Of a DNA stretch of 64,000 nt, positions 36,787 through 63,909 are shown piece after piece. Numbering within the stretch: position 1 is the stretch's first letter; each line of letters begins with the position of its first letter. Both the position numbers and the translations under genes were made by a program. A model generated the notes under the pieces. The model did not search any database, was not told the DNA's origin, and saw nothing but the letters and a program-made list of their open reading frames with translations. This DNA comes from Escherichia coli (GTDB lineage Bacteria > Pseudomonadota > Gammaproteobacteria > Enterobacterales > Enterobacteriaceae). Location of the stretch: assembly GCF_003334405.1 (NCBI RefSeq), contig NZ_QOWM01000005.1, one strand, 5' to 3'.

Positions 36787-36850
36787 CGCTTCAGGGCCCC
36801 GGTAAAGGGGCCCTGCTATCAATTTGTCATTTCAATTACGCGAAATTTAT

Positions 36851-37831
36851 ATGAACGCAATAATATCGCCTGATTATTACTATATTCTTACCGTTGCTGG
36901 TCAGTCTAATGCCATGGCGTATGGCGAAGGACTGCCATTACCGGACAGGGAAGATGCGCCTCATCCCAGAATTAAACAATTAGCGAGATTTGCGCATACG
37001 CATCCCGGAGGCCCGTCATGTCACTTTAACGACATTATTCCACTGACTCACTGCCCACACGATGTTCAGGATATGCAGGGTTATCACCATCCTCTGGCAA
37101 CGAATCATCAAACACAGTACGGCACCGTTGGCCAGGCACTGCATATAGCACGGAAATTACTGCCCTTTATTCCTGATAATGCAGGGGTTCTCATCGTTCC
37201 GTGTTGCCGTGGCGGATCGGCTTTTACCGCGGGCAGCGAAGGAACATATTCAGAACGGCACGGAGCCAGCCATGATGCTTGTCGTTGGGGAACGGATACT
37301 CCGCTATACCAGGATTTAGTCAGCAGAACGCGAGCCGCACTGGCAAAAAATCCGCATAACAAATTCCTCGGCGTATGCTGGATGCAAGGCGAATTTGACT
37401 TAATGACCAGTGACTACGCGTCACACCCTCAACACTTTAATCATATGGTTGAAGCCTTTCGTAGGGATCTAAAACAATACCATTCTCAGCTTAATAATAT
37501 TACTGACGCACCGTGGTTTTGCGGCGATACCACCTGGTACTGGAAAGAAAATTTCCCTCATGCGTATGAAGTTATTTATGGCAATTATCAAAATAATGTT
37601 TTAGCCAATATTATTTTCGTCGACTTCCAGCAACAAGGTGAAAGAGGACTGACGAACGCGCCTGATGAAGACCCGGACGATTTAAGCACGGGATATTACG
37701 GTTCAGCGTACCGGTCACCGGAGAACTGGACGACGGCACTGCGAAGCAGTCATTTCAGCACGGCAGCCCGTCGGGGGATTATTTCTGACAAGTTTGTAGA
37801 AGCAATTTTGCAGTTTTGGCGCGAAAGGTGA
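36851..37831 (+). CDS. nanS: 9-O-acetyl-N-acetylneuraminate esterase
   Basis: ORF 36824..37831 trimmed to MNAIISPDYYYIL for 326 aa. Confidence 0.85.
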   Translation: MNAIISPDYYYILTVAGQSNAMAYGEGLPLPDREDAPHPRIKQLARFAHTHPGGPSCHFNDIIPLTHCPHDVQDMQGYHHPLATNHQTQYGTVGQALHIARKLLPFIPDNAGVLIVPCCRGGSAFTAGSEGTYSERHGASHDACRWGTDTPLYQDLVSRTRAALAKNPHNKFLGVCWMQGEFDLMTSDYASHPQHFNHMVEAFRRDLKQYHSQLNNITDAPWFCGDTTWYWKENFPHAYEVIYGNYQNNVLANIIFVDFQQQGERGLTNAPDEDPDDLSTGYYGSAYRSPENWTTALRSSHFSTAARRGIISDKFVEAILQFWRER

Positions 37832-37838
37832 GCGTTCA

Positions 37839-38489
37839 TTAATTTGATTTATTCGCATCCATCAGCGCTTTTAACTGCTCCGGCGTAAACGGTGGTTTGC
37901 GTCGGTGCAACATCGCATGGCAATTAGGGTACACAGGCAGCAAATCATTAACTGGATCCAGCTGGTAATCCTCTTTAATGGCTGACAGCGGCACCAGGTG
38001 ATGCACATGGATAAAGCCTTCAGCGATATCACCATAGATCTTCACCAGATCAACACCGCATACGTTGCACTGGCATCCATGATGTTCGACCGCTTTATCT
38101 CGGGCCTTTTTATCGCGTTCATAGCGGTTTACTGTCACCTTTATCGCCGCACCTTCAAGGTATGTCTCCTGCGACGGCAACTCATCCGGGAACAGAACGT
38201 CGGCTATGGGAGCCGCAGCGGCTTTATCCAGATGAATATGAAATCCCTGCTCTATGAGTAGCTTGACACATTTAGATTTTATTCCGCCGGTGAAATCCGC
38301 AGGGGTAAATTGCGTCCCCGTCATCAATGTCGCTGCGATGCCAGCAATCGCCTTCGAGGGGTAACGTCGGCCATGATATTCAATCTCATACAACCGCGCA
38401 GGCTGGAACTGATGAGTTTCTCCCGCATCCCATAAATGGATAGCTTCGATGATATACCGCCGCGGAAGATGATCAGGGAGTTTATTCAT
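37839..38489 (-). CDS. HNH-family nuclease with an uncharacterised ~135 aa N-terminal domain
   Basis: 216 aa; C-terminal GCQCNVCG...IHVHHLVPL...NDLLPVYPNCHAMLH is a zinc-ribbon HNH motif; convergent with nanS. Confidence 0.6.
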   Translation of the reverse strand: MNKLPDHLPRRYIIEAIHLWDAGETHQFQPARLYEIEYHGRRYPSKAIAGIAATLMTGTQFTPADFTGGIKSKCVKLLIEQGFHIHLDKAAAAPIADVLFPDELPSQETYLEGAAIKVTVNRYERDKKARDKAVEHHGCQCNVCGVDLVKIYGDIAEGFIHVHHLVPLSAIKEDYQLDPVNDLLPVYPNCHAMLHRRKPPFTPEQLKALMDANKSN

Positions 38490-38568
38490 GGAGAATGTCC
38501 TTATACGTTCTCAGAACAGGCAGCAAAAAAACAAATGAGATCAAGGTAATATATCTTCACTTGCAGGC

Positions 38569-38811
38569 TTGAACAGCAGAAAATTTGCGAGCATGATCGC
38601 AATTATTTCACTGCCAGGGATATCAATAGCTTCCAGTAAATCGCTACAGCAGGCAATTGCCAATATAAAAATCTGGCACAAGGGTGAACAGCGCGCGCCG
38701 CATAAGCCATTGTTATTGCTATACGTATTAGCGGGATACCTGAATGGACATCCGCGCCTTTTCGATTATTGTAGTGGAACAGTCTACGAGGATGCAGTTC
38801 GAAGTGAGTAA
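38569..38811 (+). other. unassigned 80 aa ORF divergent from the HNH gene
   Basis: Contains ...KIWHKGEQRAPHKPLLLLYVLAGYLNGHPRLF...; no confident family assignment. Confidence 0.25.
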
Positions 38812-39255
38812 GTAAAGGTTGCTGGAAACGATCAATGCCGCCATACAATGATTTTTTAGGATCAACAATGAGTAATAAAAACTACGAAAGTCACCGCAAA
38901 GCGATTGTTAGTAAAGGTATACCACCCGCTCTATTAAATAGGCTCACCAATTCGGATGTTCAGGTGATCAATACCTTCTTAACACGAGTGAGCAAACTGG
39001 AACTATCTCAACAAGAGAAAGACTGGATCATAAAAATCATCTCTATGGTTTAGACAATTTCAGCCTTGTAGCCTTTCAAGGGTTTTGTGTGGGTACAAAC
39101 ATTATCGAATCGGGGTATAGCCGCAGCTGTAGCTGTATCCACATCAGTAAGTTGATGTAGGTTGACTTAGGTTGAGCGAAAAATAGCGAAAAGCCTTGTG
39201 TGGCGCGGATTTCAGTCATAAAAAAACGTCCGTTGATGTCTATTGATGTTCCGAT

Positions 39256-39293
39256 GGTGCGAAGGTGCAAAGGTGCGAAGGCCGGACTCAAAC
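39256..39293. repeat. degenerate tRNA-Leu 3'-end-like sequence with a partial tandem duplication; probable island attachment-site remnant
   Basis: ggtgcgaaggccggactcaaac resembles the reverse complement of a tRNA-Leu acceptor/T-arm end (TGGTGCCGAAGGCCGGACTCGAACC); ggtgcgaagg also occurs immediately upstream. Confidence 0.4.
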
Positions 39294-39770
39294 ATGTGAC
39301 TTAACCTCATGATTTAAAATTGTTAATAATAAACAATATCATCTTATACCAACACAGATACCAACACGAAAAATCACTGGTTTTCGGCATCGAACCAGGA
39401 CAATCAGCTCCTGATTGAGATACCGAGCTCTGTTACTCGTCATCTTCCTCGACAGGCTTCATTGCATCAAGTAGTACTCGCACCATCGCGATAGAACCAA
39501 TCCGGATAAAAGCATCTTCTCCATCTATATCTGTTAACTGATATCGCTCACTTGATGCCGGATAATTGTGTCGATTTGCAGCAGTGAACTCTTTCGTACA
39601 GCCAGAATGCGGCGGATGCTGGTTGAGCAGATAACGTCCGTATTCTCGTTGACCACTTCCGGACGGTAGGCTGTGATATCAGACATAATCGATATTCCTT
39701 TTTGCAGATAAATGAAAATGCCAGCCCTGTTCAGGCTGGCGTCAGTGGAATGAAGTCTGGTGAGTAAGAC

Positions 39771-58837: not shown

Positions 58838-59935
58838 ATGGATTACAGCATGGCTAGTGTTGATGCAGATTACTGCTACTCGTTTCCGGCTATACGTGGC
58901 ATTCAGGCTGGTCGCCCTTTCTATATCGCCACATGCCCGATGCGTATCATCCCGAAAATATTCAGTTTTGATGAAAATGATGTGCCACCGGAATTACGCG
59001 CACAGCGCACGCTAAATAAATCGCGCATTCCCGAGATGGTACGTTATTTGTTGGAAAACCCTAAAGATTATGTGTTTTCAGCTCTGACGGCTTCCATTGC
59101 CGTAGACGTTCAATTTGATGAGTTTCCAGGTTCTAACAATCTGGGGACGTTGTGCGTACCAATGGATGCGCAAATTCTAATCAATGATGGACAACATCGC
59201 CGTAAAGCGATTGAAGACGCTTTAGACGCTCGTCCGGAGCTGGGCCAGGATAATATCCCGGTGTTGTTCTTTGTCGATGAAGGCTTAAAGCGTAGCCAGC
59301 AGATGTTCGCCGATCTGAATAAATACGCCATTCGCCCCAGCCCATCGCTGGCGTCGCTATACGATCATCGCGATGCCTGTTCGAATCTGGCGCGTTATCT
59401 GGCAATGTCAGTAGAGCCGTTTGTTGGGATGACGGAACTGGAAAAATCTGGCATTAGCCAGAGGTCGAATAAGCTATTTACGTTGAGCAGCATCAAGCAG
59501 GCTACCCGCGCATTGTTGGGCAAAGATCCCAAAGAGGATAACTTTGAGGAATGCACCCACATTGCTACCCAATATTGGCAGGCTATTTTTAGTGTAATGC
59601 CTGATTGGCAATTAGCGGCTAAAAAGGAAGTTTCACCGGTTCAATTGCGACAAGATTATGTTCACGCTCATGGCATTGGATTGCAGGCACTTGGGCAACT
59701 AGGATATACCCTGCTGACGGATTATCCTGAGCAATGGCCGGAGAAAATCGCTGCACTCAAAACATTTAACTGGCGTAGAAACAATCCGGACCTCATCAAG
59801 CGAGCGATGCAGCATGGGAAGTTGAGTAAAACCAGTACCGCGATCCAGTTAACCTGCAATGCGCTAAAAACCGCACTCTCAATTCCCCTCACTCCTGAAG
59901 AACAGGAGCTTGAAGCTCAAATGGTTGTCTCATGA
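58838..59935 (+). CDS. dndB: DndB-like DGQHR-domain protein (regulator of DNA phosphorothioation)
   Basis: 365 aa with exact DGQHR motif (LINDGQHRRKAIEDAL); first gene of a four-gene coupled operon. Confidence 0.8.
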   Translation: MDYSMASVDADYCYSFPAIRGIQAGRPFYIATCPMRIIPKIFSFDENDVPPELRAQRTLNKSRIPEMVRYLLENPKDYVFSALTASIAVDVQFDEFPGSNNLGTLCVPMDAQILINDGQHRRKAIEDALDARPELGQDNIPVLFFVDEGLKRSQQMFADLNKYAIRPSPSLASLYDHRDACSNLARYLAMSVEPFVGMTELEKSGISQRSNKLFTLSSIKQATRALLGKDPKEDNFEECTHIATQYWQAIFSVMPDWQLAAKKEVSPVQLRQDYVHAHGIGLQALGQLGYTLLTDYPEQWPEKIAALKTFNWRRNNPDLIKRAMQHGKLSKTSTAIQLTCNALKTALSIPLTPEEQELEAQMVVS

Positions 59936-61554
59936 GTAAATTAGTTCAGGCCTATGATTTGGCCGAATACGAAGATTTTATTAATCAGGAACAGTTCGCC
60001 GGACGTCCTCTGGCCGAATATGTTGCTGAGGTTCAACGAATTTATTGTGCGGATAAACGTCCGTGGGTGATTGGCTACAGCGGTGGGAAAGATTCTTCCG
60101 CTGTGATCACGCTGGTGTATCTGGCCTTGCTCGGCCTGCCCCCGGAAATGCGCAGCAAAGATATTTTTGTGGTGTCGTCCGATACGCTGGTCGAAACACC
60201 GGTAGTCGTGGATCTGATTAAGAAAACGATGTTGCAGATTGAGGCGGGAGCGAAGCGTAACGGCTTGCCGATCACTCAACACGCGGTAACGCCTAAAACG
60301 AATGAAACCTTCTGGGTCAATTTGCTGGGGAAAGGTTATCCGGCTCCAACTCGTAGTTTCCGTTGGTGCACTGAGCGCATGAAAATCAACCCGGTGAGTG
60401 ACTTTATTAAAGATAAGGTCAGCCAGTTTGATGAAGTCATCGTCGTACTTGGTTCGCGCAGTAGTGAAAGTGCTTCTCGTGCGCAGGTGATCGCAAAGCA
60501 CAAGATTGATGGATCACGCCTTGCCCGGCATACCACGCTGGCAAATGCATTCATCTATACCCCCATTGATACCTGGGATGTAGAAGATGTCTGGAAGCTG
60601 CTGCGGGGCGCGTTCCGCTATGCCCCTGAAGATATCGACGAGTGGGAAAGCCCGTGGGGTGGAAACAACCGTCCACTGTGGACGTTGTATATGGATTCTT
60701 CCGCACAGGGTGAATGTCCTCTGGTAATTGATGATAGTACCCCTTCCTGCGGCAACTCGCGTTTTGGCTGTTGGACCTGTACCGTTGTCACTAAAGATAA
60801 GGCGATGGAAAGCCTGATCAAAAACGGTGAAGAATGGATGTCTCCGTTGCTGAAATATCGTGATCTGCTGGCATTTACCACCGATCCGGTGAATAAAGAC
60901 ACGTTTCGAAACTATAAGCGCCGTACTGGTAAGGTGAGCTATCAGTACGCTAAAGAAAGTGATGAGCCGGGGGCTGAGCGTAAGCATGTTCCAGGTCCTT
61001 ACTGGCTAAAATACCGTCAGCAATGGCTCAAAGAATTGCTGGAGATAGAGCGCGATTTGAATGCTCAAGGCCATACCATTACGTTAATTACCAAACCAGA
61101 GCTGCATGCGATTCGTCAGGAGTGGTTGAAAGATCCTAATGAACCAGACTGGTATGACACGCTGCCGGGTATTTACCGTGAAGTGTATCAACAGGATTTA
61201 GACTGGGTGGTGGACGATCAGTCGCGCTTTGATGCCAGCGATGCAGATCTGTTGGTGCAGATAGCGCAGGGATTTGACGTTGTGCCTGAAATGGTGATGA
61301 AACTCATCGAGCTGGAAGTTTCAATGGAAGGCTTAAGCCGTCGTCAGGGCATTTTTGACAAACTTGGCACGATTTTAAAGCAGGACTGGGGCACTCTCGA
61401 AGAAATTGAACAACAACAGGTCACTCTGCAAAAACGAGTTGAACGAGATATTCATCAGGAAGAACTTACAAAGCTGGAAACTGAACTTCAGGTTTTACAG
61501 CGCAGAATTGTTGATGCCAGTGAATCCTCGTTACTGATTGGGGAGGAGAAATAA
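59932..61554 (+). CDS. dndC: DndC-like PAPS-reductase-fold sulfurtransferase
   Basis: 540 aa; PP-loop SGGKDSS; cysteine cluster CGNSRFGCWTC; ATGA overlap with dndB. Confidence 0.85.
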   Translation: MSKLVQAYDLAEYEDFINQEQFAGRPLAEYVAEVQRIYCADKRPWVIGYSGGKDSSAVITLVYLALLGLPPEMRSKDIFVVSSDTLVETPVVVDLIKKTMLQIEAGAKRNGLPITQHAVTPKTNETFWVNLLGKGYPAPTRSFRWCTERMKINPVSDFIKDKVSQFDEVIVVLGSRSSESASRAQVIAKHKIDGSRLARHTTLANAFIYTPIDTWDVEDVWKLLRGAFRYAPEDIDEWESPWGGNNRPLWTLYMDSSAQGECPLVIDDSTPSCGNSRFGCWTCTVVTKDKAMESLIKNGEEWMSPLLKYRDLLAFTTDPVNKDTFRNYKRRTGKVSYQYAKESDEPGAERKHVPGPYWLKYRQQWLKELLEIERDLNAQGHTITLITKPELHAIRQEWLKDPNEPDWYDTLPGIYREVYQQDLDWVVDDQSRFDASDADLLVQIAQGFDVVPEMVMKLIELEVSMEGLSRRQGIFDKLGTILKQDWGTLEEIEQQQVTLQKRVERDIHQEELTKLETELQVLQRRIVDASESSLLIGEEK

Positions 61555-61555
61555 C

Positions 61556-63556
61556 GTGCTCATTAAACAGCTGGTATTACATAATTTTCGGGTATTTAAC
61601 GGTACACATACCATTGATCTGGCACCCAGAAAGCGTCCGCACGATTTGAATCCACGACCTATTGTGCTGTTTGGTGGTTTAAACGGCGCAGGGAAAACGT
61701 CTATCCTGTCGGCGATCCGCATAGCGTTGTATGGACGACTGGCGTTTGGGCTAGCGACTCAACAGCAAGAGTATATCGAACAACTCAGTGCATTGATTCA
61801 TAACGGCGCGTACTATATTGAGCAGCCGGAAGAAGCATCTGTAGAACTGACGTTTACCTATAATAAAGGCGGTCATGAGGCCGAATTTACCGTTACGCGA
61901 ACCTGGAAAAAGGGGAAGAGGGACCGCCTTTCTCTGCAACAGGATGGGCAGCCACTCAGTGAGCTGGATTACGATCAGTGCCAGGGATTTCTAAATGAGT
62001 TAATTCCGCATGGCATTGCTGATTTGTTCTTTTTCGATGGCGAGAAAATTGCAGAACTTGCTGAGGACGAATCCGGTAATATTTTACGTACTGCCGTACG
62101 ACGCTTATTGGGGCTGGATCTCATCTCTAAACTGCGTAACGATTTAATGATTTTTGTTAAGCGTCAGCAATCCAGCCAGCTAGCAAGTTCTCAGCAACAA
62201 CAGATTGCAGAGCTTGAAAAACAGAGTAAAGAATTAGCCTGCCAGACAGAAGCACTGCTGGAAAGCGCCGATTTTGCCAAATCGCGGATTGAGTTTCTAT
62301 CTAAAGATATAACCCATTATGAAGGCTTGCTAAATGCTCAGGGGGGCGCTTTTGCCCAGACTAAAGCGCAGGAAAAACAGAAAGTCGAAACGCTGCTAAA
62401 AGATAAAGAACATCTGGAAAAAGCACTGAGACAAGAATGCGATGGCTCGCTACCTTATGCGCTTGCGCCCACTATTTTGTCTCATTTGCTGCAACAAATT
62501 GCTGATGAAACGCAAATTAAACAGGCAAAAAGCTTTGAAAAAGAGCTGAGCCAGTTTTTAACGCAACTCAGAAATGATATTGCATTTCGTTCTGCGGGGA
62601 CTGGCAAAATAGCAGCTGAAGCGATTACCGATAATCTAAAAGATTATATGGCAACGAAACCAAAAGGTGATTTGCTCTTTGATATCTCTGAGCGTGAAGC
62701 AGGTATGCTTCAACAGTCTATTGAGATAGATAGTAAAAGAGCATGGCAGCGTTTCGAGCTTTATCGCACACAGTTATCTGAGATTGAACAACAGTTAGAA
62801 CAAGCGGCTGCTAATATTGCCCGCGCTCCTGAAGATGAGCAGCTGATGGATCTCTTTGAAAAATTACGTGACCTGGATAGGCAGCGCGAAGCCCAATTGC
62901 AGAAATATCGGTCATTGCTAGAAGATGCTAAACGTAAAAAACAGCAGCAACTGGATTGTGTTCGTCAGATTCAAAAAGCGCATGACGCCGCTCGTTATCA
63001 GCACAGTTATAGCAGTGCGTTTAAGAATGCTCAGGAAACGATAAATTTACTCGATCGCTACAGCGATGTATTAACCCAGGCTCGGGTAAAAACGCTGTCG
63101 ACAAACTTCGAGCTTGCTTACCGTAAGTTGGCTCGCAAAGAGGATTTACAACTTAGTGCGCATATCAACCCTCAAACGTTTGATGTTGAATTAATTGATG
63201 AGAATGGCTCAGTAATTAACCGTAAGTTACTTTCTGCTGGTGAAAAACAGATTTATGCAATTGCTATTCTTGAGGCGCTGGCGAAAACCTCTGGCCGTGA
63301 TTTACCAGTGATCATTGATACACCATTGGGTCGTCTGGACTCTCAACATCGAGATAAATTGATTAATCACTACTTCCCTGAAGCCAGTCATCAGGTTGTG
63401 TTGCTTTCTACCGATACTGAAGTAGATGAACGTTATTTTGTTGATCAGTTGCGTGATGATATCTCTCATGCTTATGAGATTGTGTTTAATGCACATACTA
63501 AGTCATCAACGCTGAAGCCTGGTTATTTCTGGGAATTAACTAAGGAGGCTATCTGA
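61556..63556 (+). CDS. dndD: DndD-like SMC/ABC-type ATPase
   Basis: GTG start after SD gggaggag; Walker A GGLNGAGKTS; long coiled-coil middle; C-terminal DTPLGRLD signature-like segment. Confidence 0.8.
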   Translation: MLIKQLVLHNFRVFNGTHTIDLAPRKRPHDLNPRPIVLFGGLNGAGKTSILSAIRIALYGRLAFGLATQQQEYIEQLSALIHNGAYYIEQPEEASVELTFTYNKGGHEAEFTVTRTWKKGKRDRLSLQQDGQPLSELDYDQCQGFLNELIPHGIADLFFFDGEKIAELAEDESGNILRTAVRRLLGLDLISKLRNDLMIFVKRQQSSQLASSQQQQIAELEKQSKELACQTEALLESADFAKSRIEFLSKDITHYEGLLNAQGGAFAQTKAQEKQKVETLLKDKEHLEKALRQECDGSLPYALAPTILSHLLQQIADETQIKQAKSFEKELSQFLTQLRNDIAFRSAGTGKIAAEAITDNLKDYMATKPKGDLLFDISEREAGMLQQSIEIDSKRAWQRFELYRTQLSEIEQQLEQAAANIARAPEDEQLMDLFEKLRDLDRQREAQLQKYRSLLEDAKRKKQQQLDCVRQIQKAHDAARYQHSYSSAFKNAQETINLLDRYSDVLTQARVKTLSTNFELAYRKLARKEDLQLSAHINPQTFDVELIDENGSVINRKLLSAGEKQIYAIAILEALAKTSGRDLPVIIDTPLGRLDSQHRDKLINHYFPEASHQVVLLSTDTEVDERYFVDQLRDDISHAYEIVFNAHTKSSTLKPGYFWELTKEAI

Positions 63557-63909
63557 TGCTCCCGAATCGAATGGCGCTTAGCCGTCAGACTGAAGATCAG
63601 CTTAAAAAGCTTAAAGGGTATACTGGGATTACACCCAATATTGCTGCCCGGCTAGCATTTTTCCGCTCGGTGGAGAGTGAGTTTCGCTATTCACCTGAAC
63701 GAGATAGTAAGAAGCTGGATGGTACGCTGGTGCTGGATAAAATTACGTGGCTGGGGGAGACACTACAAGCTACAGAATTGGTGCTGAAGATGCTTTATCC
63801 ACAATTAGAGCAAAAGGCGTTGATTAAGGCATGGGCTGCTCATGTTGAGGATGGGATTGCGGCATTGAGAAATCATAAAAGTTTAATTAGCTTATTAAAT
63901 GCTATATAA
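63556..63909 (+). CDS. dndE: DndE-like small protein
   Basis: 117 aa, start overlaps dndD stop; position and size match DndE. Confidence 0.7.
   Translation: MLPNRMALSRQTEDQLKKLKGYTGITPNIAARLAFFRSVESEFRYSPERDSKKLDGTLVLDKITWLGETLQATELVLKMLYPQLEQKALIKAWAAHVEDGIAALRNHKSLISLLNAI

Follow-up and report, generated by a model that had tools for sequence, protein, structure and literature searches.

Two short open reading frames at the leuX island edge of Escherichia coli: a predicted stump of an EcoWI-type nuclease gene and a putative separate gene

Two short open reading frames lie side by side in a 64,000-nucleotide stretch of Escherichia coli DNA (the window, which here always means the whole stretch that was analysed), between an HNH endonuclease gene and an att-like remnant. 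The question is what they are and whether they belong together. An earlier note, made from the letters of this DNA, had left both unassigned and suggested that they may be the frameshifted remains of one larger gene. The ORF listing returned exactly the two frames of that note, both on the plus strand (ORF1 and ORF2 in Table 1), and the HNH gene is indeed head-to-head with them, with its start facing ORF1. Our reading, to which we give a probability of about 0.88, is that ORF1 is the dead stump of an EcoWI-type gene, that ORF2 is a separate and complete 61-aa gene, and that the dead nuclease makes the locus compatible with a dnd cluster in the same window. Both the stump and ORF2 were already known, as RefSeq annotates both and PHROGs holds the ORF2 family. 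Taken alone, the assignment of two previously unplaced ORFs is an ordinary result of little weight.

Table 1. Coordinates of the features discussed, in positions of the window
Feature	Position	Strand	Remarks
HNH endonuclease gene	37839..38489	-	Intact, 216 aa; WP_001037966.1, 'HNH endonuclease' in twin genomes
ORF1, mechanical ORF	38569..38811	+	80 aa, TTG start, from the ORF listing; 19 upstream non-gene codons, 48 native stump codons and 13 read-through codons, ending in TAA
5' stump of EcoWI-type SBD-HNH gene	38626..38769	+	Codons 1-48 of 290; from NF045808 and the alignment to the intact allele
Foreign segment	38770..39063		294 bp; replaces the rest of the restriction gene and carries ORF2
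ORF2 as listed	38835..39053	+	72 aa, ATG start; the 38835 start is specific to this allele
ORF2 proper	38868..39053	+	Predicted intact 61-aa gene; WP_000066585.1, phrog_25874
Integrase-upstream remnant	39064..39254		Sequence found upstream of the P4-type integrase in leuX islands; integrase missing
att remnant	~39255..39293	-	Degenerate, internally duplicated leuX 3' end; aligned to genuine leuX in L006
dndB	58838-59935	+	TIGR03233, above the NCBIfam equivalog cut-off
dndC	59932-61554	+	TIGR03183, above cut-off
dndD	61556-63556	+	TIGR03185, above cut-off
dndE	63556-63909	+	TIGR03184, above cut-off

Just downstream of nanS lies the region of interest, the decayed distal edge of the leuX genomic-island hotspot of E. 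coli. It is flanked on the left by nanC, nanM and nanS and on the right by minus-strand CP4-type island genes (DUF957, DUF5983, cbtA, cbeA and others), with 99–100% DNA matches in E. coli. Both ORFs appear from the alignments to sit between the nanS-HNH backbone and the att remnant of tandem or eroded leuX islands. The nanS gene of the window (sialate O-acetylesterase, 36824-37831) is open for 335 aa. Most twin RefSeq genomes label it a partial pseudogene and place a separate hypothetical gene of 29 aa at the 3' end, on the other strand, and 23-AB02114 annotates it as complete; the discrepancy may stem from divergence of the C-terminus or from the annotation itself.

Within ORF1, what carries biological meaning is the run of native stump codons listed in Table 1. 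ORF1 contains the motif RAPHKPLLLLYVLAGYL, and the earlier note had seen in it a conserved core that it could not place. Such a core is there: ORF1 matches the NCBIfam model NF045808 (PT-DNA restriction endonuclease) over profile positions 2-45 of 284 with E=1.7e-16 and 60.2 bits, and APHKPLLLL in ORF1 is the motif whose His-Lys pair contacts sulfur in the sulfur-binding domain (SBD). An intact 290-aa allele occupies the same place in strain SCU-171. It scores 438.7 bits against NF045808, above the curated cut-off of 180 bits below which ORF1 falls, carries Pfam HNH_2 at residues 182-236, and aligns over residues 5-142 to the solved SBD of ScoMcrA (E=6e-8). E. coli W also has an intact 290-aa protein at this nanS-adjacent locus, WP_000168572.1, with a computed mass of 33.3 kDa. 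In genomes identical to the window, the annotation beneath ORF1 reads 'phosphorothioated DNA-binding restriction endonuclease', partial, with the C-terminus missing, and the RefSeq label for the stump was partial pseudogene in the five genomes inspected.

The characterised E. coli enzyme of the SBD-HNH type is EcoWI, which cuts GpsAAC/GpsTTC at N7/N6 (PMC7461809; Yang et al. 2022, PMC9521924); the SBD of the EcoWI-type enzyme reads the Rp-phosphorothioate in this sequence and the C-terminal HNH domain cuts nearby. Lutz et al. (2020, PMC7461809) demonstrated PT-dependent cleavage by EcoWI, whose predicted mass is 33.4 kDa, and found that it blocks transformation by dnd+ plasmids completely. From the enzyme name, the organism and the size (33.3 vs 33.4 kDa), we infer that WP_000168572.1 is EcoWI. 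The stump resembles it in lying downstream of nanS at the locus of the E. coli W gene, in matching NF045808 and in being identical to the W protein over codons 2-48 (38629-38769). In contrast to EcoWI, it has 48 of 290 codons, has lost its start codon and is without the HNH domain, and so cannot be an enzyme.

The comparison with the intact allele also located the lesion. Over 38440-38769, the DNA of the window is 98% identical to the intact allele, and beyond 38769 similarity drops to noise. When the intact 290-aa protein was compared by tblastn with the whole 64 kb, only residues 1-54 were matched, at 38626-38790, with the last few residues being a weak gapped extension. Residues 55-290 had no match in any frame of 38560-39060 or in the rest of the window, the HNH_2 domain at the C-terminus of the enzyme had no counterpart in the window, and the next-best match was the HNH motif of the neighbouring gene at E=0.23. 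Because the DNA homology stops cleanly at 38769, the lesion is a deletion or replacement junction and not a frameshift. The comparison with intact homologues that had been proposed for locating frameshifts thus found a clean break, and the search for one gene spanning 38560-39060 found enzyme homology that ends at the stump, with nothing of it in ORF2. That ORF1 and ORF2 are two frameshifted fragments of one larger gene would fit their position as neighbours on one strand with 23 bp between them, and ORF1 truly is a fragment of a larger gene; but with most of the enzyme unmatched in every frame, with DNA identity collapsing at a single point, and with ORF2 having full-length homologues of about 60 aa with starts and stops of their own, this explanation has almost no chance of being right. 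Half of the earlier suggestion therefore survives: ORF1 is what remains of a larger gene, whereas ORF2 belongs to a different family of about 60 aa.

The descent of the stump is supported by its orthologous position, with the same nanS and HNH neighbours as in SCU-171, E. coli W and FORC_041, together with the 98% DNA identity. ORF1 falls short of functional membership in the SBD-HNH family on every count (score cut-off, full sulfur cavity and HNH domain). Judged by its sequence, ORF1 is a pseudogene remnant of a family member and not itself a member. The stump keeps His26-Lys27, which correspond to the sulfur-cavity residues His116-Arg117 of ScoMcrA (ScoMcrA/SprMcrA SBD; PDB 5ZMO, 5ZMM, 7CC9; PMC6224610, PMC7470945), but it lacks the half of the cavity formed by Tyr164/Pro165/Ala168 as well as the base-reading loop; ScoMcrA differs further in having an additional head domain and an SRA domain. 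The sulfur cavity is therefore incomplete, the Pro165-equivalent segment (DMPFW in the intact allele) having been deleted along with the remaining SBD and the entire HNH domain. With these residues and domains missing, the stump would be unable to bind PT-DNA or to cut DNA.

At 38626, where the intact allele has its native ATG start codon, the window reads ATA. Among the truncated alleles, ATG was found in four others, and ATA was shared by the window, WCHEC020031 and CB6837. Loss of the start codon thus looks like a later step in the decay, as four other truncated alleles kept it. These findings bear on the idea that the stump has been retained for a function, either as a short N-terminal SBD peptide or as promoter or regulatory DNA for the divergent HNH gene. 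In hundreds of genomes the stump is conserved, as is the spacer of 136 bp between its native start and the start of the HNH gene, the 80-aa in-frame ORF is open, and the adjoining HNH gene is intact. Conservation of this kind is, however, explained by recent common descent (99-100% identity). Moreover, the native start is ATA and no ribosome-binding site is evident for the TTG and ATG codons upstream of it, the SBD is down to 48 of about 145 residues with the essential Pro165-equivalent gone, and K-12 and W show that either gene can be lost independently of the other. We consider a retained function very improbable.

For ORF2, the true start is likely the ATG at 38868. The extension from 38835 was closed by a TGA in 5/6 other genomes and plasmids aligned, a GAGGA ribosome-binding site precedes the 38868 ATG by 6 nt in most aligned alleles, and RefSeq genomes annotate a 61-aa hypothetical protein, WP_000066585.1, that begins there. 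The 72-aa form is peculiar to the window allele and in this it differs from phrog_25874 and WP_000066585.1. ORF2 matched phrog_25874 in PHROGs from end to end (profile positions 1-61 of 61, E=6.5e-47) and was 100% identical to a 61-aa protein (P0004) present on at least 1,000 contigs. A word-indexed protein search returned 262 proteins; the best 120 of the 262 were 95-100% identical to ORF2, and all organism-named matches among these 120 came from E. coli. An exhaustive search of 1.84 billion proteins revealed three genuine homologues (P0125, P0133 and P0134) of 51-64 aa with 61-67% identity, which share with ORF2 the invariant core NTFLTRVxKLEL. Large repeat proteins from the searches (P0127, P0132 and P0136) were rejected as relatives, as their scores were sums of 8-15 weak repeat matches and were judged spurious from the sequences. 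In the comparison of ORF2 with two of the homologues, pN was 0.17-0.28 and pS was 0.81-0.97 (three pairwise comparisons, with synonymous sites saturated). The frame is under purifying selection, with pN well below pS, which argues that ORF2 is a real gene.

Against these data we weighed the possibility that ORF2 is no gene but an open frame that arose by chance in junk DNA. ORF2 is short and was without a match in NCBIfam, PADLOC or the phage collection, the database records of its near-identical copies list no Pfam domain, and near-invariance within E. coli means that within-species data say little. An AlphaFold2 model with four short helices had no match in the PDB (Foldseek, best E=4.4). 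However, the model is confident (mean pLDDT 81) although built from only 4 sequences, the homologues of the same length lie on unrelated contigs, and the low pN relative to pS and the GAGGA site before the ATG in most alleles both speak for a gene. A chance frame is on this evidence quite unlikely. ORF2 has a full-length profile match, a length similar to that of its relatives and a reading frame under purifying selection, and it is predicted to be a complete gene of a small, conserved, mobile-element-borne family, separate from the gene of ORF1. One homologue lies in an operon-like run (a 152-aa protein, a 139-aa protein, the homologue and a 742-aa AAA_25 primase/helicase-like protein); resolvase and toxin-antitoxin genes are found on the same contig. 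Another homologue lies beside YeeR-like and Hha-like genes. There was no signal when the sequence upstream of ORF2 was compared with the 3' end of the gene preceding the homologue in L010, nor was there any signal in the window for the primase-like gene downstream of that homologue. Going by genomic context, a low-confidence guess is that integrative elements could use the small helical product as an accessory or regulatory protein.

The 294-bp segment that carries ORF2 is unrelated to the restriction gene, and its occurrences in complete E. coli genomes were all beside the stump. When 38480-39320 was compared by megablast with 5,426 complete E. coli genomes, matches were found in 3,156, and the junction allele (at least 80% coverage) was common to 776-778 of the 5,426; the estimate rises to about 960 genomes if only the ORF2 segment is required. 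In other strains and plasmids (CFIAFB20190172 and plasmid p1585m1_C), the right edge at 39063 abuts different island DNA while the stump/ORF2 junction is constant, which suggests that the junction is the older event. The junction at 38769/38770 showed neither an IS end nor microhomology, and no donor context for the segment was found in E. coli. An old deletion or replacement would have taken out codons 49-290 of the EcoWI-type gene, and ORF2 would have arrived with the 294-bp segment now found next to the stump; in a sub-lineage, a point mutation would afterwards have changed the start codon from ATG to ATA. Twenty-seven plasmid copies of ORF2 were also found, but a native plasmid context for ORF2 was rejected, as the copies are IS1-bracketed pieces of this chromosomal locus. 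On p1585m1_C (L013 4560-5442) and 26 other plasmids, IncY and others, the HNH 5' end, the stump, ORF2 and the start of the AbiEii-side DNA follow each other between two IS1.

On the right, the att-like remnant described in the earlier note is present next to the two ORFs. Its parts are some 190 bp that resemble the sequence upstream of the integrase and a degenerate, duplicated leuX 3' end. In other E. coli, the counterpart of 39068-39265 is the DNA from the start of a P4-type integrase gene to tRNA-Leu (leuX), with about 79% identity. Neither a tRNA gene nor an integrase was found in the window, so the att is a remnant rather than a working site. We also considered 38770-39067 as an integrase remnant and rejected it, as homology to the integrase-leuX region starts only about 10 bp upstream of the would-be integrase ATG. 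At 39064-39081, precisely where the ORF2 segment gives way on its right to the integrase-upstream-like sequence, there is a terminator-like hairpin, CCTTGTAGCCTTTCAAGG, with a T-run after it. The att remnant next to the stump/ORF2 allele is followed in some strains, after a few hundred bp, by fosA7.5, a fosfomycin-resistance gene (L007 2112-2534, L009 2401-2823).

The HNH neighbour has an N-terminal domain (residues 24-86) that resembles the 'head' domain of ScoMcrA with E of about 1e-3 to 1e-4; PDB 5zmm was matched at residues 29-92 (E~1e-3) and PADLOC mREase_IV at positions 29-91 of 560 (E=1e-4). Its C-terminus is an HNH nuclease with a weak Pfam HNH match, and the EcoKMcrA HNH (6ghc) was also matched. 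With its head-like domain and McrA-like HNH, the 216-aa protein forms together with the SBD-HNH gene a pair that looks like a split ScoMcrA.

Across strains, the two genes have different fates. The HNH neighbour was at least 80% complete in 1,239 genomes and the restriction gene was at least 80% kept in 1,707. In E. coli W, the nuclease is intact and the HNH neighbour is reduced to about 105 bp. K-12 has a different remnant straight after nanS, between nanS and yjhR; it shares gene family and locus with the stump and is annotated as a partial/frameshifted restriction endonuclease. It differs from the stump in being another allele (about 90% identity), in having neither the HNH neighbour nor the ORF2 segment, and in that a deletion of about 60 bp takes the start region and the truncation lies near nt 268. 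The locus appears to decay by several independent routes, with the HNH gene and the SBD-HNH gene lost independently of each other, as in K-12 and W. The deletion in K-12 (L005 3930-4060 compared with 38570-38650 in the window), which includes the start codon, lies between two short direct repeats, ACAGCAG, and these suggest a slipped or microhomology-mediated deletion. Beyond the intact EcoWI-type gene in E. coli W, there are McrBC-like genes, HsdM/HsdS type I R-M genes, a HerA-like helicase gene and a Ser/Thr kinase gene (L012 8989-27804). Such defence genes point to the nanS-leuX edge as a defence-island hotspot.

At the other end of the window, dndBCDE (58838-63909) is an intact-looking cluster of the type found in E. 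coli B7A, predicted to write phosphorothioation. Its dndC gene is 100% identical to the B7A gene, and the B7A locus has the same layout, with the HNH gene, the same stump annotation and an island with dndBCDE and dpt-like genes at its end; just past the end of the window, twin genomes have dptF/G/H-like genes. Cells expressing EcoWI yielded zero transformants with plasmids into which the EcoB7A dnd cluster had been cloned (PMC7461809). As EcoWI fully restricts B7A-type PT DNA, an active EcoWI-type copy in this genome would be expected to attack the host DNA. The dead state of the nuclease would then be what makes an EcoWI-type locus and B7A-type dndBCDE compatible on one chromosome. Both in B7A, the reference dnd+ strain, and in the window, a dead copy of the enzyme class that destroys B7A PT-DNA lies about 20-35 kb from dnd. 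Fewer than 3.6% of predicted PT-dependent nucleases are near dnd clusters (PMC7461809), and a dead nuclease beside dnd agrees with this.

The B7A-type dnd was found in 15 of the 5,426 complete genomes, and a type that is about 84-88% identical was found in 192. The stump/ORF2 allele was present in 10/15 genomes with B7A-type dndC, compared to an estimated 18% overall, counts that ignore shared ancestry. Two of the 15 had neither the stump nor the nuclease gene body, so that the gene body was absent from 12/15. The remaining three (FORC_041, JNE082640 and UMB200201_11) have an apparently intact allele, WP_000168567.1, which shows four differences from the E. coli W protein, namely R156G, R254K and two near the C-terminus. 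The cross-tabulation of dnd and nuclease used chimeric queries and a places-per-record count over the top 60 records, and it is crude and ignores phylogeny.

It could be argued that dnd itself selected the truncation, self-restriction having forced the loss of the EcoWI-type gene after dnd arrived. The full restriction of EcoB7A-type PT DNA by EcoWI (PMC7461809), the combination of a writer cluster and a dead reader in both the window and B7A, and the 12/15 genomes without the nuclease gene body all accord with such a sequence of events. However, the junction is present in about 780-960 genomes, of which only 10 were seen with B7A-type dnd, making the truncation far older or wider than the cluster; three dnd+ genomes keep an intact allele, and the other dnd type shows no depletion. 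Selection by dnd is for these reasons an unlikely cause. The far wider spread of the truncation suggests instead that it most likely preceded dnd and was permissive. A dead nuclease is compatible with dnd carriage and plausibly permissive for it, and, with three dnd+ genomes keeping an apparently intact allele, strict exclusion does not follow from the counts. A more specific proposal, which we put forward tentatively, is that the truncated allele is a permissive genotype that lets B7A-type dnd islands settle at leuX and that WP_000168567.1 is a silenced, inactive or specificity-shifted PT-dependent nuclease. If this were true, the locus would be a natural genetic system for how a PT 'writer' and a 'reader-killer' are reconciled in one genome.

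The few strains in which dnd and the nuclease both seem intact are a small natural experiment on modification-dependent restriction versus self-modification. In these strains, the intact WP_000168567.1 gene lies only 5-19 kb from the B7A-type dnd (L015 35668-36540, L017 40227-41099, L018 27333-28205). Among 45 sampled genomes with the commoner dnd type (about 86% identity), 27 had some EcoWI-like 3' sequence, with intact genes and remnants counted together, and 7 had the ORF2 segment, which amounts to no obvious depletion or enrichment of either. In strain NDM4, this commoner type is located at selC and not at leuX.
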